Assembly: GCA_001897305.1 (NCBI GenBank)
Contig: MKSO01000001.1
Span: 510,001-542,000 of the forward strand
Direction of reading: 5' to 3'
DNA from: Candidatus Saccharimonadota bacterium
Lineage (GTDB): Bacteria; Patescibacteriota; Saccharimonadia; Saccharimonadales; Saccharimonadaceae
Length of the DNA stretch: 32,000 nucleotides
Positions 1 to 31,481 of this stretch are shown here, one piece after another (position 1 is the first letter of the stretch; each line of letters starts with the position of its first letter). A model generated the notes under the pieces. It saw nothing but the letters and a program-made list of their open reading frames with translations. It had not been told where the DNA came from and did not search any database. The translations under genes were made by a program, and so were the position numbers.

Positions 1-657
1 TACCAAAATAGCAGCAGCTTCTTCAAACGCTTCACGTGGGCTGATTGAGCCGTCGGTTTCAACGTTTACCTGGAGCTTATCAAGGTTGGTCTCTTGACCA
101 ACACGAGTTGCGTCAACCTTGTAACGTACACGAAGGACAGGGCTAAACATTGCATCCAAGGCGATCATGTCGCTGTGGAGGCGGTTTACGCTAGCGTCTT
201 CGATGGTTTGATACCCGCGACCAGCTTCAACAACGAGGTCAATAACGACAGACTTCTTTGGATCATCGATTGTAGCGATGATTTGGTCTGGGTTAATAAC
301 TTCAACGTCGGCAGTAGTTTTGATGTCGGCAGCAGTAATAGCGCCGGCACCCTTCTTCTCGATACGGAGCTCAACCGGCTCGTCTGAAGAAGATTTTACA
401 CGTACGTTCTTGAGGTTAAGCATGATGTCAACGACATCTTCTTTAATACCATCAACGGTTGTGAATTCGTGGCTTGCACCTTCAATACGGAAGGCGACAA
501 TTGCTGCACCCTTCACGCTTGATAAAAGCACGCGACGGAGGCTGTTACCGAGGGTGTTACCATAGCCGGCTTGAAGCGGCTCAATAACGAACGATGCACT
601 ATTTGCACCAGTTTCTTCAACTGCGGCAAGTGCTGGGTTGTGAATAACTTTTGACAT
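1..657 (-). CDS. rpoA: DNA-directed RNA polymerase alpha subunit, N-terminal 219 codons (gene runs off the window start)
   Basis: Missing from the ORF track because it has no stop inside the window. The reverse complement from ATG at 655-657 reads MSKVIHNPALAAVEETGANSASFVIEPLQAGYGNTLGNSLRRVLLSSVKGAAIVAFRIE..., typical of the alpha N-terminal domain. It follows rpsD as in the alpha operon. Confidence 0.9.
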   Translation of the reverse strand, partial: MSKVIHNPALAAVEETGANSASFVIEPLQAGYGNTLGNSLRRVLLSSVKGAAIVAFRIEGASHEFTTVDGIKEDVVDIMLNLKNVRVKSSSDEPVELRIEKKGAGAITAADIKTTADVEVINPDQIIATIDDPKKSVVIDLVVEAGRGYQTIEDASVNRLHSDMIALDAMFSPVLRVRYKVDATRVGQETNLDKLQVNVETDGSISPREAFEEAAAILV

Positions 658-7386: not shown

Positions 7387-8670
7387 TCACTTTTCGTGAT
7401 CAGTTGCCTCCGTTAGTCTTTGTTCTATCGCCTTATTAACCAAACTTGAGACCGTGCTATTCATATTTTCAAGCCGCACTCTTTGCATAAAGCCTACAGG
7501 CCCGAGTTTCTTAAACATCTTACCAAAAGTTTCATCAGCAAACGAAGATGATACAATCGCAATCTTATCAAAGTCAACAACTACCGGAAGGCCAGTCTCA
7601 AGCATTAGATTTTCAATGTCATTTCTAATCCTGAAGCCCGATTGCCTAGTACCATAACCTGAAGCTTTCTCATCCAACCTATACATTAATCTCTCTCCTG
7701 TTTCATTAAGAGACGAGAGTACTCGATATGAATCAGGTCGATGTCCATTTAAAGCATTTTCAATATTAATTGGCTTCTGATAATTTATTTGAAAATCGAC
7801 AATTGTACCACCACCCTTTCGCGCATGACTGAGATAAGGCCCTGAATCTTTTGTAATTTGCCCATCATTACCAATATGAATACGCGCTCCACTACTTGTT
7901 ATAGTCATCTCTCCTGTTCCAGATTCTATAATCCTATGCAAACCCCATAAACCGTTTCCTTGATGTTCCGTCTTGCTCCTTGTAACCCCTTCTTTCATTG
8001 CAAGAGTAATGGCATCCATTGAATCGGATGGTTTATAAAAGTCCGATGTACTTAAAGAGTTATATATACCCTGACCTGCGTCCGCCACACAAAAAACGAC
8101 CTGCTTTTGTCCGCTGTGCAACTGGCCCATTACGTAACCTGAGTCGGAATCTGCGTGTTGTAAAACATTATCGACAACTTCATTAAGTGACCACTCCAGT
8201 GACACTAATGCATCCTTATTAGTGATTAACTCTCTTTCTCGAATAGCATCAATAAGCAGAGTAACAATACCAAACACATCCTCGGGACTTTCAAATTTCC
8301 AAACTTTGTTTAATGGATTATTACTATGCTCATTGAAACCAAAACTAATAGGCTCAATGAGACGCTTGTCTACAAATGAGTTAGGCGTCTCATGAAGCCT
8401 AAAAACAACTCCGGAATTAGTTCTTAGGTTGTCACAAAAAGCCGCTAACGGGACTGCTATATTTGCGTATACTGTTTCATTTTTTAGCTTACTGAAATCA
8501 AGGGTGATTTCTTGATAGCCCTCATGTCTAGCTTCTAGAACAGCACTAATAAAATGCCGTAGGGAAATCCGCTCTTTAAGTGAACGTATTATAATCACAC
8601 CGTCTCTACGTTCTATTGCAGAATCATTCAACTTATTCTGCAGTCGCTCTAGTATATTAGGACGTCCCAT
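7387..8670 (-). CDS. GHKL-type ATPase (RsbW/SpoIIAB-like kinase fold) with a C-terminal STAS-like domain and possibly an N-terminal STAS-like domain; 427 aa
   Basis: N-box LNEVVDNVLQHA (E164/N168), G1 box VADAGQGI (D197-x-G-x-G201) and G2 box GNGLWGL (G238-G243). The C-terminal 340-415 segment (VVVDFDKIAIVSSSFADETFGKMF) resembles the STAS-like family I recall as DUF4325. The N-terminal segment ITLDFSKLKNETVYANIAVPLAAFCDNL is also STAS-like. The gene is visibly AT-rich relative to its ribosomal neighbours. Confidence 0.6.
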   Translation of the reverse strand: MGRPNILERLQNKLNDSAIERRDGVIIIRSLKERISLRHFISAVLEARHEGYQEITLDFSKLKNETVYANIAVPLAAFCDNLRTNSGVVFRLHETPNSFVDKRLIEPISFGFNEHSNNPLNKVWKFESPEDVFGIVTLLIDAIRERELITNKDALVSLEWSLNEVVDNVLQHADSDSGYVMGQLHSGQKQVVFCVADAGQGIYNSLSTSDFYKPSDSMDAITLAMKEGVTRSKTEHQGNGLWGLHRIIESGTGEMTITSSGARIHIGNDGQITKDSGPYLSHARKGGGTIVDFQINYQKPINIENALNGHRPDSYRVLSSLNETGERLMYRLDEKASGYGTRQSGFRIRNDIENLMLETGLPVVVDFDKIAIVSSSFADETFGKMFKKLGPVGFMQRVRLENMNSTVSSLVNKAIEQRLTEATDHEK

Positions 8671-16664: not shown

Positions 16665-17594
16665 TTAGTAGTAGTACCCTCCGCCAAGAATATCCCAGTA
16701 CTGTTCGAGGGTTTTTATGCCTCTCGCCTGCATATCTTTTGCAACCGCCGTACCGACATAGCGATAATGCCACTCTTCTGCCTTATAGCCTGTGATGTTT
16801 TCATAACCTGCATAGTAGCGCTGAATAAACCCGTAGTCGGCTGCGTTTGCCTGAAGCCATTGGTACTGAGAAGTTGCCCCAAAACAATCTAATACACATG
16901 AACCGGCAGCGACATCAAAAGCCAGGCCGGTCTGATGTTCACTATAGCCAGGGCGAGCACTATAGGTATCAGCCCCCTCTTTTCCACTTACAGACACCCA
17001 ATAATTGTACGTACTTACTTGGTCGCCATAGGATCGATAGCTGCTGGTTACAGAGAAGCCTTGGCCAGCGGCGGCGGCAGCAGCAAAGAGCTGGTTATAT
17101 GCAGAAATTGCCTTGGCGCTTAAGGTCGCTCCGTTGGAAGTCACAAGATCACCCGGCGCGTAACTTAATGGTTGAAGACAATGTTTTTTATTAACCAGCA
17201 CATCAATGTTCGCCGGGTTACTATGAGAGCTTGCCGTGTTACATGCCGATGAATTAATTGTTGATACGGTTGATTCATTAGCCGTTCGAGCTGCGTCGGC
17301 AGCTTCGTTAGCCGCTTTTTCTCTCGCTGCCTTCGCCTCTGCTCTAAGTTTAGCGTTAGCCACCAGCTGATCATTTGCCTTTTTTAGTAACTGCGAGGTA
17401 TTGGCATTAGCCTGACTTATAGATTGGTCAATATGTGCGTTATACCAGTTATTAAATACAAGGCTTGCAAGTAGCGGCAAAATAATAAGCGAAGCAATGA
17501 GCCAATAACGGCGCACGAAAGTGACGGGAGACTTCTTATTTTTTGTCGATTTCACTCTCTCTATAATAGTACTTTTTGGCTTTTGTCCAAACAA
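16665..17594 (-). CDS. Membrane-anchored D-alanyl-D-alanine carboxypeptidase, peptidase M15B (VanY-like)
   Basis: Contains SSYRSY, GYSEHQTGLAFDV and AEEWHYRYVG, the VanY/M15 zinc-peptidase motifs. There is an N-terminal TM helix (YWLIASLIILPLLASLVF) and an A/K/E-rich coiled segment. The start is uncertain: TTG at 17594 lies inside the tuf terminator, and the alternative is GTG at 17553-17555. Confidence 0.85.
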   Translation of the reverse strand: MFGQKPKSTIIERVKSTKNKKSPVTFVRRYWLIASLIILPLLASLVFNNWYNAHIDQSISQANANTSQLLKKANDQLVANAKLRAEAKAAREKAANEAADAARTANESTVSTINSSACNTASSHSNPANIDVLVNKKHCLQPLSYAPGDLVTSNGATLSAKAISAYNQLFAAAAAAGQGFSVTSSYRSYGDQVSTYNYWVSVSGKEGADTYSARPGYSEHQTGLAFDVAAGSCVLDCFGATSQYQWLQANAADYGFIQRYYAGYENITGYKAEEWHYRYVGTAVAKDMQARGIKTLEQYWDILGGGYYY

Positions 17595-18920: not shown

Positions 18921-19307
18921 TTAGGACGAAGACTGCATATCCACCTGCCAAATATCGGGCATCGTACTGTATTTAATAACCATCTTTTGATGCAACGCTT
19001 TTAGTTTTTCAGAATCGGTCTGGTTGAACTCAAACTGAGATGCTGCATTTCGCAATTTTTCGAGGTCGAACTCTTTGATGCAATCTCGAGCCCTACGAAT
19101 AATTTCCTGCATAAAAATATCGAGTGTTTCGTAGGCAAGCCAGGTATAGACTGCATCTAGACCTACGCCATGCACAATCTTACACCGCACCTGGTACCAA
19201 TATTCTATAAGTGATTGCCAATCATCGACGTTTTGTATTTCACCATTCCAGTGATTTGTTTCGTTTTTTAGGGGCTGCTTTTGCGTGACATCAACCAGAC
19301 GCTTCAT
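18921..19307 (-). CDS. Hypothetical protein, 128 aa, with a HEPN-like Rx4H motif (WYQVRCKIVHG; R41, H46)
   Basis: The ATG overlaps the stop of the upstream ORF (ATGA at 19304-19307). The R codon is at 19185-19187 and the H codon at 19170-19172. The predicted protein is helical. The family call rests on the motif only. Confidence 0.55.
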   Translation of the reverse strand: MKRLVDVTQKQPLKNETNHWNGEIQNVDDWQSLIEYWYQVRCKIVHGVGLDAVYTWLAYETLDIFMQEIIRRARDCIKEFDLEKLRNAASQFEFNQTDSEKLKALHQKMVIKYSTMPDIWQVDMQSSS

Positions 19308-19555
19308 GTAGACTTAAGTGGTGTCATGCTATTGCCAATTCGATAATCCTCCCAGATACCTACTCTTGCTTTTAGTAGCGTAATGGCCTTGCGGTCATTT
19401 GTCGTAACCGTCACTCGACGATACCACGCATTATATGCTGCATATAATAACATGAAGCGTTGCTCGTAATCTATCATTGATTTTTCATACAACTCACATA
19501 CCTTTTCAAATCCAAAAGGAACATTATAGCTGCCATTGTTCGATATGTCCGTCAT
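19304..19555 (-). CDS. Hypothetical protein, 83 aa (88 aa if started at 19570); possible N-terminal half of a split HEPN-like domain
   Basis: The ATG at 19553-19555 overlaps the RadC-like stop (ATGA). The segment RFMLLYAAYNAWYRRVTVTTNDRKAITLLKA resembles the first helices of some HEPN families, from memory and unverified. Confidence 0.5.
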   Translation of the reverse strand: MTDISNNGSYNVPFGFEKVCELYEKSMIDYEQRFMLLYAAYNAWYRRVTVTTNDRKAITLLKARVGIWEDYRIGNSMTPLKST

Positions 19556-20187
19556 AGGACGCTTCCCCATTCTTGACAGGAGGGTCCGTAAACCGCATAT
19601 ATCCCTTTGAGCTTTATGCCTAAAAGTCGTGAGGTTTCGTACATAGAACCCATAAGCCCTATTTCCTGTGGATTTGGCCCTTTAGTGCTATTTTTCGTCA
19701 CGATAAATATATACACGTTGCGAGCATGAACAGTAAGAGCATCGGTAAAAATCCGCTTAGCAATAAGGCTGTAGTGTTCATTTTTCACTAGGGTATACGA
19801 CTTATGATCGATTTCTTTCATAAAGCCGTCTAGCCAATAGCTCACGACTTGATGACCACGTATATTCGCCAGTTCACCAACGTATTTACTAACGAGTTCT
19901 GTCGACTCACGATCACCAGAATTCTCCATCACCATGCGCCGCCCAAGTTCGACCGCACCAAGCAACTGGCAGGCCTTAGCATCACCAAGTCCAACAATAC
20001 CAACAAGCGAGCTATACTGAAAGTTCCCTGCCAAAAGAAGACTTTCGACTCGTTTGGATAATTTTGCCGCCGAAACCCGAGCACTCCCAGAGCCAATAAT
20101 AAGTTGAATGAGCTCAACCAAGCTTAAGTAACGCACCCCTTGAGCACGCAGCTTTTCTCTTGGTTGTTCGTATAAAACTTGCCCCAT
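19552..20187 (-). CDS. RadC-like protein with a degenerate (probably inactive) JAB/JAMM motif, 211 aa
   Basis: The N-terminus PREKLRAQGVRYLSLVELIQLIIGSGSARVSAAKLSKRV...GLGDAKACQLLGAVELGRR matches the RadC helix-hairpin-helix region. In the C-terminal JAB region the expected HNHPSG...PS..D...DH is replaced by VTKNSTKGPNPQE...KG. Confidence 0.7.
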   Translation of the reverse strand: MGQVLYEQPREKLRAQGVRYLSLVELIQLIIGSGSARVSAAKLSKRVESLLLAGNFQYSSLVGIVGLGDAKACQLLGAVELGRRMVMENSGDRESTELVSKYVGELANIRGHQVVSYWLDGFMKEIDHKSYTLVKNEHYSLIAKRIFTDALTVHARNVYIFIVTKNSTKGPNPQEIGLMGSMYETSRLLGIKLKGIYAVYGPSCQEWGSVL

Positions 20188-20239: not shown

Positions 20240-22333
20240 TTATTTATTTGTACGCTTTGCAATAATCTCTTGCATCACGTTTGGTGGTACTTCTTCGTAC
20301 TGGGCAAGTTCCATGGTTGAAGCGGCACGACCTTGGCTCATTGAACGAATGTCGTTGGTGTACCCAAAGAGGTTTGCAAGTGGTACGTAGGCACGAACCA
20401 ACTTAGCACCACCAGGAATGTCTTCCATGGCGTCAATACGGCCACGACGAGAGTTAAGGTCGCCGATGATGTCACCCATGAAATCTTCTGGAGTTGAAAC
20501 TTCAACTTTCATGACAGGCTCAAGGATAACTGGGCGCGCTTGTGGAATACCGGCCTTTACAGCCAATACACCTGCCAAGTTAAAGGCGAGTTCGCTTGAG
20601 TCGACGTCGTGGTAGCTACCATCGTAGAGGGTTGCTTTTACACCAATCATTGGGTAACCAGCGATCACACCGCCCTCGAGCGTATCTTTAATACCCTTCT
20701 GAACTGGTGCGCGGTATTCTTGCGGCACCACACCACCCTTAATTTCGTCAACGAATTCGAAGCCTTCACCAGATTCGGTCGGTTCGAAACGAATCCAAAC
20801 ATCACCATACTGTCCACGACCACCAGATTGCTTAGCATGCTTACCCTGAGCTTCAGCGGTACCACGAATAGTTTCACGGAAGGCCACTTGCGGTTCACCA
20901 ATGTTGGCTTCAACGTTAAATTCACGCTTCATACGGTCAACGAGGATGTCGAGGTGAAGCTCACCCATACCTGACATAATGGTTTGGCCGGTTTCTTCGT
21001 CGGTGTGAATACGGAAGGTTGGGTCTTCTTCGGCTAGACGCTGCAGGGCAATACCCATCTTTTCTTGGTCGGCTTTTGTCTTAGGCTCAACCGCAATCGA
21101 TACAGGAGGTTCTGGGAATTCAATTGACTCAAGTACGATTGGGTGTGCTGGGTCAGACAGAGTATGACCTGTGAAAGTCGTCTTAAGGCCAACAACGGCG
21201 GCGATGTCACCAGCGCCAACGTGGTCGATGTCTTCACGCTTGTCGGCGTGCATACGAACAATACGGCCAATACGCTCTTTTTCACCCGTTGTGGTGTTAA
21301 GCACATAGCTACCAGCTGTAAGCTTACCGCTATATACACGAACAAAGATTAGACGGCCAACGAATGGGTCGCTAGCGATCTTAAAGGCTAGCGCAGAAAG
21401 AGGCTCGCTGTCAGCAGGTTGGCGTTCAACGACATCACCAGTCTTAGGGTTGGTACCCTGAATCGCCTCAACATCAAGCGGCGAAGGCAAGAAGTCGTTT
21501 ACAAGGTCAAGCACCTTTTCAACGATTACACCACGGCCATCACCACCAGTCACGAGGAAGAAGTCACCGGCAAGGACACGCTTGCGAAGCGCACGCTTAA
21601 GCTCTTCAAGAGTGATAGACTCTTCACCTTCTTCAAGGAAACGTTCGAAGAGTTCATCTTCTGCTTCAACTGCTGCTTCAACTAATAGACTGCGAGCATT
21701 CTTGGCTTTTTCAAGCATGTCGGCTGGGATTTCACCTTGAACCAAAGCCTTGTCAGTATAGTCACTGTAGGTGTAGGCTTTCATGTCGAGAAGGTCAACA
21801 AGACCGTTGATGTCCTTTTCAAAGCCAATAGGAAGGTGCACAGGAAGTGCGTGCTTCGAAAGACGGTTGTGAATACTATCGAGAGACTTGTAGAAATCAC
21901 CACCAATTTGGTTAATCTTGTTTACGAAACAAATACGAGGCACGCCGTACTTGTTCGCCTGGCGCCATACGGTCTCGGTCTGAGCTTCAACACCCATCTT
22001 ACCGTCGAACACAGTGACCGCACCGTCGAGGACACGAAGTGAACGCTCAACCTCAGCGGTAAAGTCGATGTGACCTGGCGTGTCAATGATGTTGATCTTG
22101 TGACCCTTCCAGAAACACGTAACAGCAGCAGAGGTAATCGTAATACCACGCTCTTTCTCTTGCGCCATCCAGTCAGTGGTTGCACCGTCGCCGTCGCCAC
22201 GAACTTCACCAATCTTGTGGTTAATACCCGTACGGTACAAAATACCTTCAGTAGTAGTGGTCTTACCCGCGTCAATGTGGGCAATAATACCAATGTTTCG
22301 ATAGTCCTTAAGTGGGACGTTTGCTTGAGCCAT
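20240..22333 (-). CDS. fusA: Elongation factor G
   Basis: 697-aa ORF with ...[21 protein letters not shown]... and ...[23 protein letters not shown]..., showing full five-domain EF-G architecture. Confidence 0.98.
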
Positions 22334-22386: not shown

Positions 22387-22415
22387 ATTATAACAGATAC
22401 TAAGGCCTATGACTA
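22387..22415 (-). promoter_or_regulatory. Candidate promoter for fusA: TAGTCA-17 nt-TATAAT, overlapping the 3' end of the 333-aa ORF
   Basis: On the minus strand the -10 element is at 22387-22392 and the -35 element at 22410-22415. The ORF stop is at 22400-22402. Confidence 0.45.
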
Positions 22416-23401
22416 GTTACTGTATAAAAAGCTTTTCGCAACGATACTATTGATTTGATTGATGATAGTGGTACCGTATATGTCATTGATTCCTGTCGAT
22501 GATCCATAGGGTATACTCGTGACTTAACAACCAATTGGTAGCTGGAAGAAATACTGTTAGTATCTACCATTCTTGGAATCAAGTTGATGTTCGAGAGGTG
22601 GGTCATGGCGCGCATATTAGTGACTTCATAGCATATATTATGGCCCATCTTTTTATCTTTTCGAATAATCGGCCCCTCTATAACCGCTTCGTAAGGCATG
22701 TCCTTGTCAAGAACTATGAGGCCACGTAGATATTCTTTGACACAATTCCTTGATAGAGGGTCACTGAGATCAATCCACTGTTCTATATCCAGGTCAGCAA
22801 CCGCTTCTAATGCTTCTGTTTCGGACATTACACCCAAAAGTCGCCTATCAATTTCATCTACAAACAAAGGATATTGCAAGGTCACCCAATTAAAGGCCCT
22901 TTCTTTTGATGCTTTATCTGTATCAACAATAACGTCAGTAAGCTTACCAGTAGCTCTTACGTACTGCTCGCCCTCAGGCGGATTTGGTACACAGTCTGCG
23001 GGAACAACAAAGTCATGTAATAGTTCAGAATAAGATCGGTCATCTTTAATAGCCGACGTAGTGACTGCATTAAAACCGTTTGAGATAACCGTCGTATCCC
23101 AGAGTATTGCTTGACTTCTCTGTCCTTTACCATCTCTGTACTCAATCAACCCTCGAACCTTAAGCTTTTCTCCTAACCACTCCCCCCACTTGCGGTCAAA
23201 TTCCGCTACAATCTCCTGCCTGTGCTGTAAGCTGTTGGGTATAGTTGTAAGTAGTTCATTAGCCGAGTAGGCTTCGGAGAGAACTCTATCCATAGCAGGT
23301 TCGCGTAATAGACCAATTTGCTCCTCAAGGGCGGCGAGCGATCCATCGCTAACCTCAAGATTATTCGCATTGTTGTCGAAAGACTCATTTTCTGCTGACA
23401 T
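22400..23401 (-). CDS. Hypothetical protein, 333 aa (cassette ORF4), no recognisable domain
   Basis: ATG preceded by AAGAGGA 7 nt upstream and 18 nt after the ORF3 stop. The N-terminus is acidic and the rest appears mixed alpha/beta. The DNA is AT-rich. Confidence 0.7.
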   Translation of the reverse strand: MSAENESFDNNANNLEVSDGSLAALEEQIGLLREPAMDRVLSEAYSANELLTTIPNSLQHRQEIVAEFDRKWGEWLGEKLKVRGLIEYRDGKGQRSQAILWDTTVISNGFNAVTTSAIKDDRSYSELLHDFVVPADCVPNPPEGEQYVRATGKLTDVIVDTDKASKERAFNWVTLQYPLFVDEIDRRLLGVMSETEALEAVADLDIEQWIDLSDPLSRNCVKEYLRGLIVLDKDMPYEAVIEGPIIRKDKKMGHNICYEVTNMRAMTHLSNINLIPRMVDTNSISSSYQLVVKSRVYPMDHRQESMTYTVPLSSIKSIVSLRKAFYTVTSHRP

Positions 23402-23419
23402 AACTATCCTCTTTGACTA

Positions 23420-24109
23420 TCAATGGTCCAAAAGTTCGGCGAATTGAGCGTCCCAATCAATGTCATGTGCTGATTGCGCAAGCGCCTGCATTACTGCCCG
23501 CTCCTGCTTTGCGAAAAGTATTTCATGCTGATTGAAGGCTAGTTTCGCAACGGCTCCCGTGCCCGTTTCAAACATACGCTGCTTAGTAACGTCTTTGACA
23601 AACCGTTCACTCCAATGCTCAATAATATCGTTTGTCTGAGGACCCATTAGAACGAGCCCTCGGTGTCCCATATTTAAAATAGCTTCACTAATTTGATGAT
23701 GCGTATGTGCTTCATCATCAGTGTTATTTTCAATCCCACCTAGCTCAACATTGGAATATAACCGCAACGGCGAGAGTGCAGAACCGTGCGCTTCATATAT
23801 CAAAAGAGCACCAGCAGTCGCCCCAAGGTAAAAAGCCTCTTTAGACCTACGGTCTGAATCAATGAATTCACCGGTTGAGCGATCCATTGGCTCTACAAAG
23901 GCCGCTAACCGCTCCGTTTCTTGAAGAAAATTCTTAAAAGAATGTTTGTTTTGAAGAAATCGTGAATAAGCTACATCTATTGTAGTCTCGGATAAAACTG
24001 CATCTATCTTTTGAGCTGCAGTAAAATATTCGTCGTGAGTAGGGAGTTCTGGTATTGTCGGTTCGGGCATAGCAATCATTATACCCCGCACATCACGTGA
24101 CTCAAGCAT
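23420..24109 (-). CDS. Hypothetical protein, 229 aa by the ORF track (cassette ORF3), a paralogue of ORF1; the true start may be the ATG at 24068-24070 (216 aa)
   Basis: Collinear similarity to the 240-aa protein. From M14 the N-terminus MPEPTIPELPTHDEY parallels MLPTPEQLPTPNDY of ORF1. Confidence 0.7.
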   Translation of the reverse strand: MLESRDVRGIMIAMPEPTIPELPTHDEYFTAAQKIDAVLSETTIDVAYSRFLQNKHSFKNFLQETERLAAFVEPMDRSTGEFIDSDRRSKEAFYLGATAGALLIYEAHGSALSPLRLYSNVELGGIENNTDDEAHTHHQISEAILNMGHRGLVLMGPQTNDIIEHWSERFVKDVTKQRMFETGTGAVAKLAFNQHEILFAKQERAVMQALAQSAHDIDWDAQFAELLDH

Positions 24110-24126
24110 AAGCTAGGTAGTAGCAA

Positions 24127-25242
24127 CTAGACTCGTGTTATAGGCGTTCCAAACTCTGGAAAGTGCTTCACAACCTCATCATTTCGATGGAACCGCATCA
24201 AGCCACTAGAAGCTATATCATCAAACCTCACAAGGCCTTGTTGATAAAGACGGAGTGTTTCACGAAATTGAGTTGCAATATTTTCAATAGCCAATTCCTC
24301 ATCCACACTGGCCCCTCCTCTAACAAAGCGGCTAAATGCATCTACGGTACCGGACGGATCGTCTTCGTTGATTGTTAAGCGCACCCCTCCTGGAACAACG
24401 AGCGCATTATAGCGACGTTTTGCCCTTTTTGTGAGGCGTGATTTTATTTCTATCGGAATGACTTTACGAATATTCCCCCAATGTTGGTTGACTATCATAA
24501 TGTCATGGGTTTGTCTGGCATTGTAAAGCCCTGACCCCCCTCTTACCGTAGATAGTAGTGGCACGTACCGTGGGTCATCAATAACTAGAGCGGCCATAAG
24601 TGCTATTGCTTCAAACAATAGTCCTTTGTGCTGCGCCTGCATTGCCCAATCATCTTGTTCAATTGCCGCTTGATATTCGATGTTAATACTGTCAGTAATA
24701 TGCGCTATGTCCGCCAATACCGATGCCATCACTCCATTACTAACATTCCCTACGATGATCGACTTTACTAGTGGCATTGTCGCTAAATTTAATGCAGTCC
24801 GATGGCCACCGTATTCATTGCGATCACCTACTTCAAATGTTAAATTTCTTCCTGCGTAAAGTTCGCTCACAAGTTGTCTTTGCCAAATTTGTTCACCCCT
24901 CATCGCTATAGCTAATCGATCAACAGCTGACGTGTCTGCCGCTAATAATGAAGCCTCTACATAAGCTGATCCTGCCGCTCTAAGATATTCTGGATACGTT
25001 TCTGATTCAAGTTTTTGACCATATTCAACCAGAATGTCCGGGCTTACAGCATCAGTCATTGATTTACTCAGTGTCATATATTCACGATAATCTTCATTAA
25101 GAAGATATCGATAATACCCTCCCGGCTGATCATATTCGCTCAAGCAATTTGGGTCAAAAGACTCGGGGGCGTCAAAATATAATGCAGATTTGAGGGCGTC
25201 ACTTCCAGGGAGGGGTGCATGAAAAACCCTCTCCCGTGGCAT
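24127..25242 (-). CDS. Hypothetical protein, 371 aa (cassette ORF2), with a PD-(D/E)xK nuclease-like core in the C-terminal half
   Basis: E211 (GLLFEAIALMAAL), D247 (QTHDIMIVN) and E265-I-K267 (VIPIEIKSRLTKRAKRRY) show the spacing typical of the restriction-endonuclease fold. The codons were verified at 24610-24612, 24502-24504 and 24442-24450. AAAGGA is the SD. The N-terminal roughly 200 aa are unassigned. Confidence 0.65.
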   Translation of the reverse strand: MPRERVFHAPLPGSDALKSALYFDAPESFDPNCLSEYDQPGGYYRYLLNEDYREYMTLSKSMTDAVSPDILVEYGQKLESETYPEYLRAAGSAYVEASLLAADTSAVDRLAIAMRGEQIWQRQLVSELYAGRNLTFEVGDRNEYGGHRTALNLATMPLVKSIIVGNVSNGVMASVLADIAHITDSINIEYQAAIEQDDWAMQAQHKGLLFEAIALMAALVIDDPRYVPLLSTVRGGSGLYNARQTHDIMIVNQHWGNIRKVIPIEIKSRLTKRAKRRYNALVVPGGVRLTINEDDPSGTVDAFSRFVRGGASVDEELAIENIATQFRETLRLYQQGLVRFDDIASSGLMRFHRNDEVVKHFPEFGTPITRV

Positions 25243-25346
25243 ATTAGTCCTTTTTCAACTTTCTGAATATATTGATTTTTGCTCCCATTTGCTTATGGTT
25301 ATACACCACACTCAAATATTTGGAAAGACTTTTTTGTTTTAAAAAT

Positions 25347-26069
25347 TTACGCATCACCCTGAAATTCACGCCAATGCCTATCCCAGTCACTTTCGGTATC
25401 CGTAGTCATATTATTTAAATCATTCTTATCAACAATTTCGTTAAAATCACCGTGGAGTCGCCGCTGGACGGCTTCAAACAAACTCTGACGAGAAGCGAAA
25501 TCGGCATCTATAATAATACCTACGCCTACTTGCACCATTCCTTCGGCTTCTGAATTGCTCGTATGGAGCAGTATTTCTTCCCACAGTTCAATGATTTCTT
25601 TACTTGTCGAAAGCGCACCCATCCCCCATCGTCCTGCAATATGAAGTTGGTCGAACAGTACAGCACGGTCCCCAACCTCATTGGCCCGATACTCAGCCGC
25701 GCGAAGCACAACATCAACGCCCTTGTTAATACGGGTTATATGCTCTGGCGTGGAATCAGGTGACGTTCGATGCATTGTATCCGTCAATAAAGAGCCTACT
25801 AGCATACCGTCTTGTAGAGCCTTCGCAGTTGCTTGTGCATCTTCAGTATGTGACCACGCTGGATTTGCATCACCCATACTCATCATCACAGACAAGTTAT
25901 TGACTCGTTGCAAAAAGTCTCTTCCCCTTCTGCTACGAAAAAGACCATTGCCGGAGAATCGGTCAATGGTCTTTCGTGGTCCACCCTCGCTCGCAAATAG
26001 TCGATCAAGCGCAATTGTAGCTCGACGATAATCATTAGGAGTAGGAAGTTGTTCCGGTGTCGGAAGCAT
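25347..26069 (-). CDS. Hypothetical protein, 240 aa (cassette ORF1), a paralogue of ORF3
   Basis: It starts 28 nt after the rpsG stop with no intervening hairpin. The protein is mostly helical. I recognise no family. Confidence 0.7.
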   Translation of the reverse strand: MLPTPEQLPTPNDYRRATIALDRLFASEGGPRKTIDRFSGNGLFRSRRGRDFLQRVNNLSVMMSMGDANPAWSHTEDAQATAKALQDGMLVGSLLTDTMHRTSPDSTPEHITRINKGVDVVLRAAEYRANEVGDRAVLFDQLHIAGRWGMGALSTSKEIIELWEEILLHTSNSEAEGMVQVGVGIIIDADFASRQSLFEAVQRRLHGDFNEIVDKNDLNNMTTDTESDWDRHWREFQGDA

Positions 26070-26097: not shown

Positions 26098-26577
26098 CTA
26101 ACCGCGTGCAAAGTGTGCGAAAGCACGGTTTGCTTCGGCCATCTTGTGGGTGTCTTCTTTTTTCTTGAAGGCAGCACCAGTTTCGTTGTAGGCATCAACG
26201 ATCTCAAGGGCGAGTCGTTGGCTGTAAGGAATACCCTTACGTGCGCGTGCGCTTTGTACAAGCCATGAAAATGCGTAGTGCAATTGGCGGTGGCCAGCTA
26301 CTGGGAATGGAATTTGGTAGTTTGCTCCACCAACACGACGGCTTTTTACTTCGAAGTTTGGAGAAACGTTCTTGAGGGCTTTTTCAAAGACTTCAAGTGG
26401 GTTTTCGCTATCAAGCTTTTTAGCTGCAGCTTCGAGTGCGTCGTAGACGGCACGCTCTGCAACAAGCTTTTTACCATTAAGCATTGACTTGTTGATTAGG
26501 CGCTGTACCATTACGCTTTGGTATTTGCGGTCTGGGTTAGGGATTCGCTGTAGGCTAACAGTTTTCTTACGTGGCAT
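26098..26577 (-). CDS. rpsG: 30S ribosomal protein S7
   Basis: 159-aa ORF with MPRKKTVSLQRIPNPDRKYQSVMVQRLINKSMLNGKKLVAERAVYDAL..., typical of S7. Confidence 0.96.
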   Translation of the reverse strand: MPRKKTVSLQRIPNPDRKYQSVMVQRLINKSMLNGKKLVAERAVYDALEAAAKKLDSENPLEVFEKALKNVSPNFEVKSRRVGGANYQIPFPVAGHRQLHYAFSWLVQSARARKGIPYSQRLALEIVDAYNETGAAFKKKEDTHKMAEANRAFAHFARG

Positions 26578-26579
26578 GA

Positions 26580-26993
26580 CTACTTGCTCTCCTTCTTTGC
26601 ACCGTACTTAGAACGGCCCTGTTGACGCTTTGCAACACCTTGGAGGTCGAGGGCACCACGAACAATGTGGTAACGAACACCTGGAAGGTCTGGCACACGA
26701 CCGCCACGAACGAGCACAACGGCGTGCTCCTGGAGGTTGTGGCCTTCACCGCCAATGTAAGCCCATACTTCGTGACCATTAGTAAGACGCACACGAGCAA
26801 CCTTACGAAGAGCCGAGTTAGGCTTTTTTGGAGTCTTAGTTGTTACCTTAATACACACACCACGCTTCAAAGGAGCGTCTTGGTCGTAGTAACGAGTTTT
26901 AAGTGCGTTGTGGATACGGCCGAGCGCTGGAGACTTCGACTTCTTGGTCGCTGTCTGGCGTGGCTTACGCACGAGTTGGTTGATTGTTGGCAT
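26580..26993 (-). CDS. rpsL: 30S ribosomal protein S12
   Basis: 137-aa ORF with [13 protein letters not shown]..., ...[35 protein letters not shown]... and ...[19 protein letters not shown]. Confidence 0.97.
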
Positions 26994-27237: not shown

Positions 27238-27552
27238 TTAGTCTTCATCCGGAAGAATGGGATACGGGTTACTCTTCGGCCTTAGTGCTCTTCGTTTTGC
27301 AAAGTATTCTTGGGCTATCTTGCGCTGTAGTTCGTTCCGTCGAGCAAGGTCATCCTTAGCTGCACTATCTTCGCCGACCTGCTCAGATGCGACATGACGG
27401 TCTGCGTTTCCCCGAGCATGTTCAATAGGCTCATCCACCCTTTGACGAACAATATCAGCTGCCCTACCTACAATAAATAGACGAGGACGATCTTCGGCTT
27501 TTATGCTTGATTGGTCCCCAGGTAAAGGGTTATGTTCAGAAATACTCATCAT
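27238..27552 (-). CDS. Hypothetical protein, 104 aa, charged with low-complexity character
   Basis: The ORF lies between the rpoC terminator and the rpsL promoter. AGGAG is about 11 nt upstream of a tandem ATG ATG. No motif was recognised, so its coding status is less certain than for its neighbours. Confidence 0.45.
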   Translation of the reverse strand: MMSISEHNPLPGDQSSIKAEDRPRLFIVGRAADIVRQRVDEPIEHARGNADRHVASEQVGEDSAAKDDLARRNELQRKIAQEYFAKRRALRPKSNPYPILPDED

Positions 27553-27629: not shown

Positions 27630-30600
27630 TTAGGCAGCGATTTCGATATCTTCAGCGATATCGGCTACGATCTCTTCGTCGCTTTCCAATGTATCAAGTG
27701 CAGTTGCACTGTGCACACCAGTACCTACAGGGATCTTGCGACCGATGATCACATTTTCCTTGAGGCCGTGGAGTTGGTCTTGGCGACCACTTACCGCAGC
27801 GTTGATCAGTACACGAGTAGTGTCCTGGAATGATGCAGCTGAAAGCCAGCTATCAGACCAGATAGACACCTTAGTGATACCGAGGAGCAACTGAGTATAC
27901 GCGATTGGTTCTTGGCCAGCAGCAACCAGTTCATCGTTAGCTTCGACAACAGCAGCACGTGAGACGATGTCACCAGTAACAAATGAACTGTCACCTGGGT
28001 CTTCAACCTGAACACGGCTAAACATTTGACGAACGATGATCTCGAGGTGCTTGTCGGCAACATCTTGACCCTGTGCGGCGTAAATACGCAGTACTTCGTT
28101 GATGATGTACCGCTGAGTTGCTTCAACACCCTTGAGGCGCATGAGGTCGTGAAGGTTAAGTGAACCACCAGTCAGGCGATCACCAGCCTCAACAACATCA
28201 CCGCTCTTTACGAGGAGCTGCATAGAACCAGGTACTTCGTAACGTACTGGCGCGCCAGCGTTAGCTGCAACAATAACGTACTCGTCGGTTACTTCTGCTA
28301 CACCGTCAAATGGTGAAATGATTGGCTTGCTTTCACTTTCACCGCTTGCCAGCACGTCACCAGCCTTAACGTTGGCACCATTCTTGATACCAGCTGTACG
28401 GCCTTCAAGCGCCAGGCGCTCAACGTGACCAGCTTCAGGGGTTACTTGTACGATGTACTTCTTGCCATCTTCCCAAGCTTCAACCACACCAGTTACTTCA
28501 GTAAGGTGAGCTTGACCCTTAGGGTTACGAGCTTCAAACAACTCTTCAACACGAGGCAGACCCTGAGTAATGTCGCTTTCGGCCACACCTGAGGCGTGGA
28601 AGGTACGAAGCGTTAACTGTGTACCAGGCTCACCGACAGACTGTGCAGCGATCACACCAACTGGTTGTGCATCTGCAACAAGCGTGTTAGTTGACATGTC
28701 GATACCGTAGCTCTTACGAGGTACACCACGAAGGTTCTTCGTTGAAAGAACTGACATGATCTTTGCTTCGGTAATTTCAGCGTCTGCTTCAATTGCGTTG
28801 GCAATCTCGCGAGTAATGAGTTCACCAGCCTTAACGTGGCCAGCAATGTCTTCAGCGGCGTAACGTCCGTAGAGACGGTTACCAAAGTCAATCATAGTGA
28901 GTTCAGTTTCCGCACGGTAGATTGTGAATCCATCGTCATCACCAGCGTCTTCAACCGTAAACACATCTTGCGACACGTCAACGAGACGACGAGTGAGGTA
29001 CCCTGAGTCGGCCGTCTTAAGCGCGGTGTCGATCAGACCCTTACGTGAACCACGGGTAGCCACGAATTGCTCAAGGCTTGAAAGACCCTTCTTGTAACTT
29101 GAACGGATAGGTAGCTCAATTTCACGGTTGGTTGCATCAACCATAATACCGATCATAGCGCTAGCCAACATAACGTTCGAGATATCACCACGAGCACCAG
29201 AGTTCACCATCACAGACACGCTCGTATCCATGTCCTTCAACTTGTCTTGCAAGAAGTCGGTAATTTGGCGAACCACACCACGCCAAGTAGCAACAGTAAG
29301 GTTGTAACGCTCTTCGTCAGTAATAAGACCTTGGTCGTATTGCTCACTAATTAACGCAGCCTTAGCATCACCTTCGGCGATCATTTCGTCGGTTTCGTCG
29401 AAGTGAATGTAGTCGTCTTTACCAGTTGATACAGCCGAAACAGTAGCGAAGCGGAAGGCTAAGCCCTTCATACGGTCGGCTGTTTTAGCGGTCTCTTCAG
29501 CACCATACTTCAAGAAGATGTTATTAAGAACTTTCTTAATTTGCTTCTTGGTTTGAACGTTGTCATCGTATGGGTAATCAGCGGGAAGAATTTCGTTAAA
29601 GAACACACGACCAAGCGTTGTGTTACGGATTTCACCCTTTGCAAACACACGAATTGGCGTTTGGAGCTGGATGATGCCGTTGTCATACGCGATCTCGGCT
29701 TCATATACAGAACTGTATGGCTTAACATTTTCACTTTGAGCGCTTGGCTTGTTGTACGTAAGGTAGTAGTTACCAAGTACAACGTCCTGAGCGATTGAAA
29801 GCACTGGCGCACCATCGGCTGGCTTCAAGAGGTTAGCTGTTGCACTCATCAAAGTACGAGCTTCTTCTTGAGCTTGGCGGCTCAAAGGAAGGTGGACAGC
29901 CATCTGGTCACCGTCGTAGTCGGCGTTGAAACCGTTGGCTACAAGTGGGTGAAGTTGAATAGCCTTACCTTCAACCAACTTAGGCTGGAAAGCCTGGATT
30001 GATAGACGGTGAAGTGACGGTGCACGGTTCAAAAGAACGTACTTGCCTTCGATTACTGCATCAAGTGCGTCCCATACTACTGCTTCGCCAGCTTCAATCA
30101 GGCGTGAAGCAGAACGAATGTTGTGGGCGTACTCGTTGCGAATCAACCAGCTAATAACAAATGGTTTGAAGAGTTCAAGGGCCATTTGCTTAGGCAGACC
30201 ACACTCGTTGATCTTTAGCTTAGGACCAACCACAATAACTGAACGTCCAGAGTAGTCGACACGCTTACCAAGTAGGTTTTGACGGAAACGACCCTGCTTA
30301 CCCTTAAGCATGTCAGAGATTGACTTAAGACGGCGGCGACCACCGGTTGCATTAACCGCACGGCCACCACGGGCAGCTGAGTTATCAACCAAGGCGTCAA
30401 CGGCTTCTTGGAGCATACGCATTTCGTTGCGACGAATCACTTCAGGGGCGTTAAGCTCAATCAGCTTCTTTAGACGGTTGTTACGGTTAATGACACGGCG
30501 GTAAAGATCGTTAAGATCTGAGGTCGCAAAACGGCCACCCGTAAGCTGTACCATTGGACGGAGGTCCGGAGGAATAACAGGCAAAACGGTAAGCGTAAGG

Positions 30601-31481
30601 CTACTTGGCTTAATACCAGCAGCTTGCATACCTTCAAGCACCTTCAGACGCTTCAAGATTTTCTTTTCACGTTGACCCTTAGCACCTTCAGCTTCTTCGG
30701 TGAGTTCAGCAATCAGTGTTTCAAGGTTAATTTCGTCAAGTAGTGCCTTGAGTGCTTGGCCACCCATACCAACCTCGATGAGATCTTGGTACTCTTCAGG
30801 AAGGTTACGGTAGTCAACTTCGCTCATGAGTGAGTTCTTAGTAAGACTTTCGAGCTGAGCCTTCTTTACAGTGTAGGCTTCATCAAGATCGTTCAGTTCA
30901 CGAGTTTGAGCTTCAGCGAGCGCCTTTACATCGGCACCTTCTGGTTCAGCTTCTTTTTCGTAACGCATCTTGATAGCCATGCGGCCAGCTTCGGTCTCGG
31001 CTTCAAGGTCAGCTAGGAACTTGTCGCGAGTCTCTTCATCGGCTTTCAATACAACGTAGGTTGCAAAGTAAGCAATGCGTTCGAGGTTACGAACAGTGAT
31101 ACCAAGCAGTAATGACATTGCACTTGGGGTGCCACGCATAAACCAAATGTGGGCAACTGGCGCAGCTAGGCTAATGTGACCCATACGCTCACGACGAACG
31201 ATTGCCTTGGTAACAAGGTCACCGTTTTTGTCGACAGCAGCTTCACGAGAGCGAACGCCCTTGAGCTTCGAGTCGTGTGGGTTGATGTCTTTTACTGGAC
31301 CGAAAATACGCTCACAGAACAGACCATCACGCTCTGGTTTTTGAGTACGATAGTTAATCGTCTCAGGCTTAGTGACTTCACCGTAGCTCCATTTGAGGAT
31401 GTCATCTGGGCTAGCGACACTTAGGCGAATAGCATCAAAGTCAGCGATGCCGTTGTTGGTGTTAGTGACGACGCGCGACAT
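27630..31481 (-). CDS. rpoC: DNA-directed RNA polymerase beta' subunit
   Basis: 1283-aa ORF containing NADYDGDQMAVHLPLS, the catalytic Mg site, along with typical clamp, bridge-helix and trigger-loop segments. Confidence 0.98.
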   Translation of the reverse strand: MSRVVTNTNNGIADFDAIRLSVASPDDILKWSYGEVTKPETINYRTQKPERDGLFCERIFGPVKDINPHDSKLKGVRSREAAVDKNGDLVTKAIVRRERMGHISLAAPVAHIWFMRGTPSAMSLLLGITVRNLERIAYFATYVVLKADEETRDKFLADLEAETEAGRMAIKMRYEKEAEPEGADVKALAEAQTRELNDLDEAYTVKKAQLESLTKNSLMSEVDYRNLPEEYQDLIEVGMGGQALKALLDEINLETLIAELTEEAEGAKGQREKKILKRLKVLEGMQAAGIKPSSLTLTVLPVIPPDLRPMVQLTGGRFATSDLNDLYRRVINRNNRLKKLIELNAPEVIRRNEMRMLQEAVDALVDNSAARGGRAVNATGGRRRLKSISDMLKGKQGRFRQNLLGKRVDYSGRSVIVVGPKLKINECGLPKQMALELFKPFVISWLIRNEYAHNIRSASRLIEAGEAVVWDALDAVIEGKYVLLNRAPSLHRLSIQAFQPKLVEGKAIQLHPLVANGFNADYDGDQMAVHLPLSRQAQEEARTLMSATANLLKPADGAPVLSIAQDVVLGNYYLTYNKPSAQSENVKPYSSVYEAEIAYDNGIIQLQTPIRVFAKGEIRNTTLGRVFFNEILPADYPYDDNVQTKKQIKKVLNNIFLKYGAEETAKTADRMKGLAFRFATVSAVSTGKDDYIHFDETDEMIAEGDAKAALISEQYDQGLITDEERYNLTVATWRGVVRQITDFLQDKLKDMDTSVSVMVNSGARGDISNVMLASAMIGIMVDATNREIELPIRSSYKKGLSSLEQFVATRGSRKGLIDTALKTADSGYLTRRLVDVSQDVFTVEDAGDDDGFTIYRAETELTMIDFGNRLYGRYAAEDIAGHVKAGELITREIANAIEADAEITEAKIMSVLSTKNLRGVPRKSYGIDMSTNTLVADAQPVGVIAAQSVGEPGTQLTLRTFHASGVAESDITQGLPRVEELFEARNPKGQAHLTEVTGVVEAWEDGKKYIVQVTPEAGHVERLALEGRTAGIKNGANVKAGDVLASGESESKPIISPFDGVAEVTDEYVIVAANAGAPVRYEVPGSMQLLVKSGDVVEAGDRLTGGSLNLHDLMRLKGVEATQRYIINEVLRIYAAQGQDVADKHLEIIVRQMFSRVQVEDPGDSSFVTGDIVSRAAVVEANDELVAAGQEPIAYTQLLLGITKVSIWSDSWLSAASFQDTTRVLINAAVSGRQDQLHGLKENVIIGRKIPVGTGVHSATALDTLESDEEIVADIAEDIEIAA

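Follow-up and report, generated by a model that had tools for sequence, protein, structure and literature searches.

The gene string rpsL-rpsG-fusA-tuf, the str operon, is among the most conserved in bacteria. Here we analyze a place where this string is broken: a cassette of four open reading frames (ORF1 to ORF4) between rpsG and fusA in a 32,000-nucleotide (nt) stretch of a Saccharibacteria genome (Candidatus Saccharimonadota bacterium, contig MKSO01000001.1, positions 510,001 to 542,000). We refer to this whole stretch as the window and to its locus as W; loci of related genomes are labelled L001 and so on. The minus strand carries every gene of the region around the cassette, and in the window the four core genes of the canonical str operon stand in their usual sequence and direction. 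It differs from the canonical operon in being interrupted at rpsG-fusA by the cassette, at fusA-tuf by a RadC-like gene with two small ORFs and, as a further break in the string of translation genes, between tuf and rpsJ by a VanY gene. In addition, fusA of the window has a conserved promoter and leader of its own. A literature search returned no paper on the rpsG-fusA junction in Saccharibacteria.

Two described kinds of locus come close to what we find at this junction. Genomic islands and defence hotspots share with it a presence/absence polymorphism between core flanks, mosaic content, many orphan and fast-evolving families, and an allele phylogeny uncoupled from that of the host. In contrast to such islands, the junction lies inside the str operon, has no integrase, transfer RNA (tRNA) gene, boundary repeats or compositional deviation, holds no recognizable defence gene, and carries cargo of which nearly all is co-directional with the operon. 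Toxin-immunity and polymorphic-toxin loci resemble the cassette in a different way: the gene of an enzyme (ORF2) is closely followed by a small non-catalytic gene, there are two paralogues of the small gene (ORF1 and ORF3), and three loci (L015, L017, L025) keep the small gene although the enzyme is missing there. Unlike those loci, the cassette has no delivery domain or signal peptide, the catalytic region of ORF2 is conserved instead of variable, the partner of ORF2 is often replaced by unrelated proteins, and solitary ORF2 relatives exist. Variable islands flanked by core genes are of a kind already known, as are orphans that are probably nuclease-like; a hypervariable slot with several orphan families in so conserved an operon is somewhat surprising.

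We propose that in this Saccharibacteria clade the interval between rpsG and fusA serves accessory genes as a permissive slot prone to recombination, and that the four ORFs of the window are one draw from a pool of slot-specific families, namely ORF2, the ORF1/ORF3 family (F13) and the ORF4 superfamily. We have good confidence in the part of this proposal that concerns a variable slot and an orphan enzyme. That the set serves a conflict-type function is a tentative addition, which we put forward as possible. Taken as a whole, a permissive variable slot that holds an orphan enzyme and conflict-type modular cargo is the explanation toward which we lean slightly.

The variability of the junction is apparent from two sets of loci. 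The first is anchored on ORF2 and comprises ten other loci (L003-L012); the second is anchored on rpsG and comprises 80 metagenome loci. Combined, they give 51 complete rpsG-fusA junctions, with an unbiased subset of 42. Across the 51 junctions the interval ranges from empty to ~8.8 kilobases (kb) and from 0 to 7 genes, and in the rpsG-anchored metagenome loci the gap from rpsG to fusA spans 6 nt to 7.8 kb. Thirteen of the 51 are free of ORFs (gaps of 6-339 nt), among them junctions of relatives with 79-84% rpsG identity to the window. Where the junction holds a single gene, it encodes, for example, a YajQ/DUF520 protein, an LssY_C protein, a 348-amino acid (aa) orphan or, in L025, a lone F13 protein. 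The content as a whole is a mosaic of ~17 recurrent families and 30 singletons; within the unbiased subset, ORF2 is present in 2 junctions, F13 in 5 and an ORF4-type gene in 4. Pfam recognizes trypsin-like peptidases, alpha-amylase, LssY_C and YajQ among the cargo, and the remainder are orphans. Two large proteins of L011 resemble ABC exporters, as read from Walker A and signature motifs alone. No restriction-modification, CRISPR or other defence domain turned up in the loci examined.

ORF2 is the commonest constant of the large cassettes, and its surroundings change from genome to genome. In all ten ORF2-anchored loci it comes after rpsL-rpsG, and in nine of them fusA closes the interval; L004 stops inside the cassette. 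The accompanying genes vary in number (1 to 6) and kind. We recognize 13 ORF2-bearing architectures, all of them between rpsG and fusA. An F13 gene directly follows ORF2 in five of these and comes after one intervening gene in two more; otherwise the followers are unrelated proteins. The species of the window is the only one in which the exact four-gene set was seen (L001, L002, L013, L101), and in every other ORF2-bearing genome the partners are swapped, lost or replaced, down to minimal cassettes of ORF2 and one gene (L007, L010). Nor are the downstream partners tied to the type of ORF2: the ORF2 proteins of L005 and L016 are 69% identical and yet have different partners. Two further families, A and B, occur in complete junctions only together and only in those that bear ORF2; a short contig, L102, has family A with ORF2 and without B, in the layout A, ORF2, ORF4-type, and its ORF2 is the closest divergent allele to that of the window (66% identity).

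These observations bear on the original prediction, which had taken the cassette for an acquired module of four genes. That the genes are accessory and not ancestral to the str operon holds up, with 13 of 51 junctions empty. The claim of a coherent, co-occurring four-gene module does not: in other genomes ORF2 combines freely with F13 and ORF4-superfamily genes, each of the three being present or absent independently of the others and mingled with further families and ordinary genes, and the four do not co-occur at other loci. A lack of co-occurrence elsewhere and a structure prediction that shows no nuclease fold were among the findings that the prediction itself had named as telling against it, and the four-gene reading is weakened because both were obtained.

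Two side observations concern the junction survey. Nine loci (L037, L038, L043, L048, L052, L053, L055, L060, L062), whose rpsG is 77-82% identical to the window's, have rpsG followed by a conserved run of genes of ~333, ~160, ~218 and ~320 aa and no fusA within 10 kb. None of the genes in this run matches the ORF2, F13 or ORF4 profiles, and the subgroup may have either a much larger island or a relocated fusA. Separately, L006 (DATMTU010000041.1) is labelled "Dongiaceae bacterium", an alphaproteobacterium. It is probably a mis-binned contig, because its rpoC, rpsL, rpsG and fusA are 91-96% identical to those of the Saccharibacteria window.

The interval is probably permissive because fusA has a dedicated promoter, which would leave fusA transcribed whatever is inserted upstream. 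The element consists of an extended -10 followed, after 6-7 nt, by a leader motif of ~27 nt (AAGCGCTATTTTyTATGGCmAAAAATA, with the variant AAGAGTAGTTTTTTGGTGCCAAAAAAT in one subgroup). More than 20 loci carry it, irrespective of the gene that precedes it; L003-L026, L040, L049 and L080 are among them, as are L054 and L056, whose junctions hold no gene. It is absent where fusA abuts rpsG (L030, L041, L044). Given its own conserved promoter and leader for fusA, the str operon is effectively split. The element is unique in the window, has no match in Rfam, which gave no hit anywhere in the window, and forms a weak 5-bp hairpin at most; the motif may be a fusA-specific regulatory leader. The original prediction had named a TAGTCA-17-TATAAT promoter for fusA. 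The sequence lies at 22415-22387 of the minus strand and its -10 is conserved across loci, but the TAGTCA -35 (22410-22415, inside the last ORF4 codons) is not.

The cassette genes themselves would be transcribed by read-through from the rpsL promoter. A promoter-like site lies ahead of rpsL at 27225-27197, and read-through from it is plausible because the scanner found no minus-strand terminator-like site in the intergenic gaps of the cassette. The absence of a terminator there agrees with what had been noted before, though the consensus matches of the scanner over the region are at chance level (14 promoters against 12.1 expected, 7 terminators against 7.3).

We next consider the four ORFs as genes. 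The previously described coordinates of the four same-strand ORFs were confirmed, as were the gaps of 28, 104, 17 and 18 nt that run in order from rpsG to ORF4 and the Shine-Dalgarno (SD)-like sites ahead of ORF2 and ORF4; a further 66 nt separate ORF4 from fusA. The start of ORF3 is uncertain, with homologue alignments beginning at about residue 11-14. An NCBI protein from Candidatus Saccharibacteria bacterium 47-87 is 100% identical to ORF4. In a close strain (L101), whose flanks are 95-98% nucleotide-identical to the window, all four ORFs are intact. The ratio of nonsynonymous to synonymous divergence (dN/dS) between window and L101 is 0.23 for ORF1, 0.11 for ORF2, 0.42 for ORF3 and 0.40 for ORF4, compared with <=0.03 for rpoC, rpsL, rpsG and fusA. 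Because they are intact in L101 with dN/dS of 0.11-0.42, the four ORFs are real genes under purifying selection. All four proteins are predicted to be soluble and mildly acidic (isoelectric point ~5) with no hydrophobic segment, and no signal peptide, secretion or delivery domain was found in them. Their status as orphans also stands: searches of ORF1 to ORF4 against Pfam, NCBIfam and PHROGs gave nothing above sub-threshold noise, and PADLOC gave no match either.

In composition the cassette has a GC content of 0.43-0.47 and a GC content at third codon positions (GC3) of 0.35-0.39; the window has a GC content of 0.467, and its other genes a GC3 of 0.31-0.50. The earlier impression that the cassette is more AT-rich is thus marginally true, with both GC and GC3 inside the range of other window genes. 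An origin from a mobile element was considered and rejected: there are no tRNA genes, no boundary repeats, no compositional deviation, and no relatives in IMG/VR, GenBank phages or plasmids.

The clearest of the slot families is ORF2. In a word-index search the homologues of ORF2 are a restricted family of 38 clusters, one of them labelled Saccharimonadaceae, and an exhaustive profile search returned 170 clusters at 50% identity, 83 of them with E of 1e-30 or better. All 26 close homologues keep D247, E265 and K267. In the wider family, sampled by 149 representatives, conservation reaches 100% for D247 and exceeds 97% for both E265 and K267. Four residues (E96, E211, R234 and D247) never vary among 99 full-length members chosen from across the family's diversity, and conservation is 90% or higher at six more (R148, G207, H246, E265, K267 and Y278), at a mean column identity of just 22%. 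The full-length AlphaFold2 (AF2) model has a predicted local distance difference test score (pLDDT) of 78 and a predicted template modelling score (pTM) of 0.83. It combines a helical N-domain with a C-terminal core in the order alpha-beta-beta(D)-beta(ExK)-alpha.

This arrangement is reminiscent of the PD-(D/E)xK superfamily of nucleases. As in that superfamily, a glutamate (E211) lies in a long helix, an aspartate (D247) stands at the start of the next-but-one strand, and E265-x-K267 follows 18 residues on, on the hairpin partner strand, before a helix with a conserved R-Y. The elements are predicted to run alpha-beta-beta-beta-alpha(-beta). ORF2 differs from the superfamily in having no match to a Pfam clan family, a PDB sequence or a structure in Foldseek, and in having conserved residues with no assignable counterpart (E96 and R148 in the helical N-domain, R234, H246). 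A fourth core strand is missing in the model of the isolated domain. Because the Foldseek, Pfam and PDB-profile searches gave no nuclease fold, we label ORF2 "PD-(D/E)xK-like by motif": the placement of its residues and the order of its strands in the models look like a PD-(D/E)xK core, of which the fold is unconfirmed. The nuclease signature reported earlier therefore survives as a strictly conserved D...ExK motif and not as a nuclease fold from AF2 and Foldseek. Judging from the residue set, ORF2 is most probably an active metal-dependent hydrolase that acts on phosphodiesters; it would be a nuclease or phosphodiesterase. A likeness between its N-domain and F13 was also tried and rejected (hhalign probability 0.2%).

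The partners of ORF2 present a different picture. ORF1 and ORF3 had been called divergent paralogues, and this is borne out: BLASTP aligns them at 22% identity over 206 aa (E=1e-4), and an iterated profile of the ORF3 family recruits ORF1, so that the paralogy is weak but real. The resulting family, F13, comprises ORF1, ORF3 and nine other proteins (221-235 aa) and recurs at 10 junctions. In the window its two paralogues stand on either side of ORF2; in L015, L017 and L025 it occurs without ORF2, and in L025 it stands alone. Because the only conserved positions of F13 are Gly, Pro and Trp, the family has no catalytic signature and ORF3 is probably a binding or adaptor protein. ORF4 is joined by iterated hidden Markov models (HMMs) with families 6, 12, 16 and 20 into a superfamily present at 11 loci, 4 of them without ORF2. 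The superfamily includes members of 574-786 aa with extra domains and has no invariant residue, its common feature being a C-terminal VPxSSIxxIxSxR tail. We also considered whether all the junction proteins of ~330-370 aa (A, B, ORF4, F57 and others) make up a single superfamily. The results so far speak against it: hhalign comparisons of shallow profiles did not support the idea, and in iterated HMM searches A, B, F57 and family 11 stay separate from the ORF4 group.

ORF2 alleles at the junctions are deeply divergent (34-69% identity), and their divergence is uncoupled from that of the genes around them. The Spearman correlation between ORF2 identity and fusA identity is 0.02 (45 pairs), and that between ORF2 and rpoC identity is -0.15 (36 pairs). 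For instance, W and L008 are 96% identical in fusA and 92% in rpoC but only 38% in ORF2, and the corresponding values for L003 and L006 are 90%, 85% and 69%. ORF2 alleles do not track the host phylogeny, a pattern that suggests either allelic exchange or long-lived divergent alleles. The uncoupling is no proof of this, since the housekeeping genes span only a narrow range of identities. Amino-acid identity to the other loci is 87-98% for rpsL and rpsG and 87-96% for fusA.

A route for exchange is offered by the flanks. Between lineages with divergent cassettes, the flanks are 80-90% nucleotide-identical with exact matches of 20-50 nt; for rpsL and rpsG the identity is 80-90%, and for the first 1 kb of fusA it is 79-86%. 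Saccharibacteria are naturally competent and recombine DNA with ~1-kb arms (PMC10633639). Given such competence and flanks of 80-90% identity, flank-mediated exchange is reasonable to infer, with cargo passing between lineages by homologous recombination through the conserved flanks. As a side observation within the species, synonymous divergence (dS) between the window and L101 differs ~7-fold among nearby genes (ORF3 0.027, ORF4 0.031, ORF1 0.057, rpsG 0.079, ORF2 0.146, rpoC 0.20), a heterogeneity that suggests a recombination mosaic even at this short distance.

More distant members of the ORF2 family are found away from the str operon. Mid-distance and distant relatives lie at other, locally conserved loci: in L097 an ORF2-like gene follows LigA and DUF1653 genes ahead of an ABC transporter, and in L093 and L103 it lies near SmpB, an AA_kinase gene and an Exo_endo_phos gene. 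Between L093 and L103 the ORF2-like proteins are 24% identical and the Exo_endo_phos proteins 66%, and the ORF2-like gene is the fastest-evolving of its neighbourhood. The same two loci (L093, 5684-9002; L103, 7720-11814) also share a protein of 261/283 aa that is 50% identical between them and stands on opposite sides of the ORF2-like gene.

What might the set do? We suggest that the non-catalytic F13 and ORF4-type proteins would be interchangeable partners of the ORF2 enzyme, acting as inhibitors, adaptors or specificity factors, and that the set would form a modular conflict-type module, defensive or addiction-like, instead of serving housekeeping. Features that speak for a conflict role are fast evolution outside the catalytic residues, patchy distribution, uncoupling from the host, non-catalytic partners that recur but are interchangeable, and F13 copies that occur as orphans.

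A considerable body of results weighs against this explanation, in part or in whole. The slot also holds ordinary cargo, and no partner family is universal with ORF2. None of the four cassette proteins matched the defence HMMs of PADLOC (PADLOC-DB v2) at E up to 1, and PADLOC searches with the 99 ORF2-family members singly gave only single-member chance matches; the expectation of a novel defence system has thus found no known defence model to lean on. When the same 99 members were searched singly against Pfam, each family that was hit at E up to 1 was hit by a single member, and sequence-profile searches of the PDB with close and wide ORF2 alignments were empty or noise. Foldseek found no nuclease in three comparisons: the full ORF2 model against the PDB gave helical-repeat noise only (best E 0.2), the C-domain model (residues 196-340, pLDDT 78) against the PDB gave a best E of 0.44 at a probability of 0.10, and the C-domain against BFVD a best E of 0.16. 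On the side of mobility, the cassette is no compositional outlier, has no boundary repeats around it, and carries no integrase or transposase domain, nor does the examined junction cargo. Recombination at 80-85% flank identity would be inefficient, and the uncoupling of ORF2 from its hosts could reflect old allelic lineages together with saturation over the narrow range of fusA and rpoC identity. Lastly, no F13, ORF4-type, A or B partner was found near the ORF2 relatives outside the str operon, and solitary relatives in stable, housekeeping-type neighbourhoods are no less to be expected of a metabolic or repair enzyme that works alone than of a conflict gene.

A more specific version of the conflict-type explanation is conceivable but doubtful. 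Here ORF2 together with the ORF1/3-type, ORF4-type, A, B and F57 proteins would make up a modular system of immunity or addiction that is peculiar to Saccharibacteria, has not been described before and resides in the str operon in a slot open to hot-swapping. The core of the system would be an orphan nuclease-like enzyme with an unrecognized fold variant, and the system would be co-expressed with the translation machinery and exchanged between lineages by transformation and recombination through the highly conserved flanks.

Saccharibacteria depend on salvage, and an unlikely alternative is that the cassette has a non-conflict accessory role in their epibiotic, auxotrophic lifestyle. ORF2 would then be a cytoplasmic nuclease or phosphodiesterase for the salvage of nucleic acids or nucleotides or for processing DNA that has been taken up, and the other proteins lineage-specific accessory factors parked in a permissive, well-expressed slot. 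Distant ORF2-like genes that lie stably near LigA (L097) or near AA_kinase, Exo_endo_phos and SmpB genes (L093, L103) are consistent with such a role, as are the amylase and peptidases among the slot cargo, the lack of a defence signature and the uptake of DNA by Saccharibacteria (PMC10633639). A salvage enzyme is not expected, however, to evolve far faster than its neighbours (24% against 66% identity), to be uncoupled from its host or to be missing from most close relatives, and the recurrent non-catalytic partners and orphan F13 copies are left unexplained.

That the four genes are one coherent acquired system of defence or toxin-immunity type, novel and working as a unit, as originally predicted, we regard as improbable. 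The genes are tightly packed and co-directional with SD-like sites, all four are kept together under purifying selection within the species, and the D...ExK motif of ORF2 is conserved, all of which would suit a single system. Yet the set is not seen outside one species: its partners are swapped, lost or replaced elsewhere, ORF2 with one gene suffices in L007 and L010, the ORF2 relatives outside the str operon are solitary, and neither PADLOC matches nor phage or plasmid copies were found.

We give slightly less weight still to ORF2 being a selfish, free-standing homing-type nuclease that targets the conserved rpsG-fusA junction, creates the hotspot and drags cargo along by co-conversion. An intergenic site between extremely conserved genes, patchy occurrence among close relatives, an ORF2 phylogeny uncoupled from the host, a nuclease-like motif and the constancy of ORF2 in large cassettes all fit this idea. 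It is at odds with ORF2 alleles that are deeply divergent (34-69%) instead of recently spread, with the many cargo-bearing junctions that have no ORF2 and with relatives elsewhere that are stably syntenic; no viral or plasmid copies of ORF2 were found, nor evidence of a target site.

The least probable reading, which the original prediction had offered as its alternative, is that the genes do translation-linked housekeeping particular to this lineage (in ribosome biogenesis, say, or the processing of ribosomal RNA or tRNA). It draws on the rpsG-fusA position common to all 13 ORF2-bearing architectures and on probable read-through with no terminator-like site found, but is contradicted by the presence/absence polymorphism of the junction: most relatives, close ones included, have nothing there or none of the ORF2, F13 and ORF4-type genes. 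It is further contradicted by fast-evolving families with relaxed dN/dS for ORF3 and ORF4, distant ORF2 relatives outside translation operons and no similarity to known ribosome factors.

The interest of the slot extends beyond this genome. A conserved gene string is here split by a dedicated fusA promoter in an ultrasmall epibiotic clade, and the gap has become a hypervariable accessory slot. This offers an example of how streamlined, naturally competent genomes may swap accessory genes without mobile elements, with core genes as the arms. The analysis also defines several uncharacterized, lineage-restricted families, of which ORF2 is the clearest, with an active-site-like set of residues and no relative in Pfam, the PDB or defence catalogues. 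The orphan families of the slot are candidates for the largely unknown conflict and host-interaction biology of Patescibacteria, and the slot could act as a natural expression site for genetic tools.

Table 1. Features of the interrupted str operon, in window positions (ORF2 parts are given by residue number in the first column).
Feature	Position	Strand	Remarks
rpoB 3' end, then rpoC	27630-31481 (rpoC)	-	
104-aa orphan ORF, rpoC-rpsL interval	27238-27552	-	
rpsL	26580-26993	-	Translated sequence; Pfam Ribosom_S12_S23
rpsG, left slot flank	26098-26577	-	Translated sequence; Pfam Ribosomal_S7
ORF1, 240 aa, divergent member of the ORF1/ORF3 family (F13)	25347-26069	-	No catalytic signature
ORF1-ORF2 spacer, 104 nt, SD-like AAAGGA ahead of ORF2 start	25243-25346	-	Scanner: no promoter or terminator inside
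ORF2, 371 aa, orphan enzyme family	24127-25242	-	
ORF2 helical N-domain, ~residues 30-221			AF2 model
ORF2 putative PD-(D/E)xK-like core, residues 199-290	24373-24648	-	AF2 models and conservation
ORF2 helix 199-221 (helix 1), bears E211			AF2 model
ORF2 strand 226-230			AF2 model
ORF2 strand 246-254 (strand 2), D247 at start	D247 24502-24504		AF2 model
ORF2 strand 257-267 (strand 3), E265 and K267	E265 24448-24450; K267 24442-24444		AF2 model
ORF2 helix 272-277, conserved R277-Y278 (Y278 directly after the helix)			AF2 model
ORF2 strand 281-284			AF2 model
ORF3, 229 aa, F13 family	23420-24109	-	
ORF4, 333 aa, fast-evolving non-catalytic superfamily member	22400-23401	-	SD-like AAGAGGA upstream
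fusA promoter and leader: extended -10 TcTGnTATAAT (TATAAT 22387-22392), then motif AAGCGGCTATTTTCTATGGCCAAAAATAA	22351-22397	-	
Leader-motif element upstream of fusA: AAGCGCTATTTTCTATGGCC			
fusA, right slot flank	20240-22333	-	
fusA-tuf interval: RadC-like (UPF0758_N) gene, 83-aa ORF and 128-aa ORF	18921-20187	-	
VanY gene (D-Ala-D-Ala carboxypeptidase family), between tuf and rpsJ	16665-17594	-	

Outside the rpsG-fusA junction, the window contains other departures from the usual gene order. The RadC-like gene of the fusA-tuf insertion and a homologue of the 128-aa ORF are at the same place in L007-L010, so that this insertion is steadier than the one between rpsG and fusA. Past tuf, rpsJ and the S10 cluster come after the VanY gene. 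The rpoC-rpsL interval is a second variable slot: in L101 (1210-1539) the 104-aa orphan is swapped for a non-homologous 109-aa ORF (19% identity), and the genes flanking the swap are 95-98% nucleotide-identical to those of the window. Elsewhere among the relatives this interval is occupied by an N_methyl ORF that resembles a pilin gene, or by genes of 227, 516 or 333+370 aa. Farther along, a 427-aa ORF (7387-8670, minus strand) has the lowest GC content of the window (0.396; GC3 0.31) and a strong negative GC skew, and its neighbours look like ribosomal-protein-sized genes.

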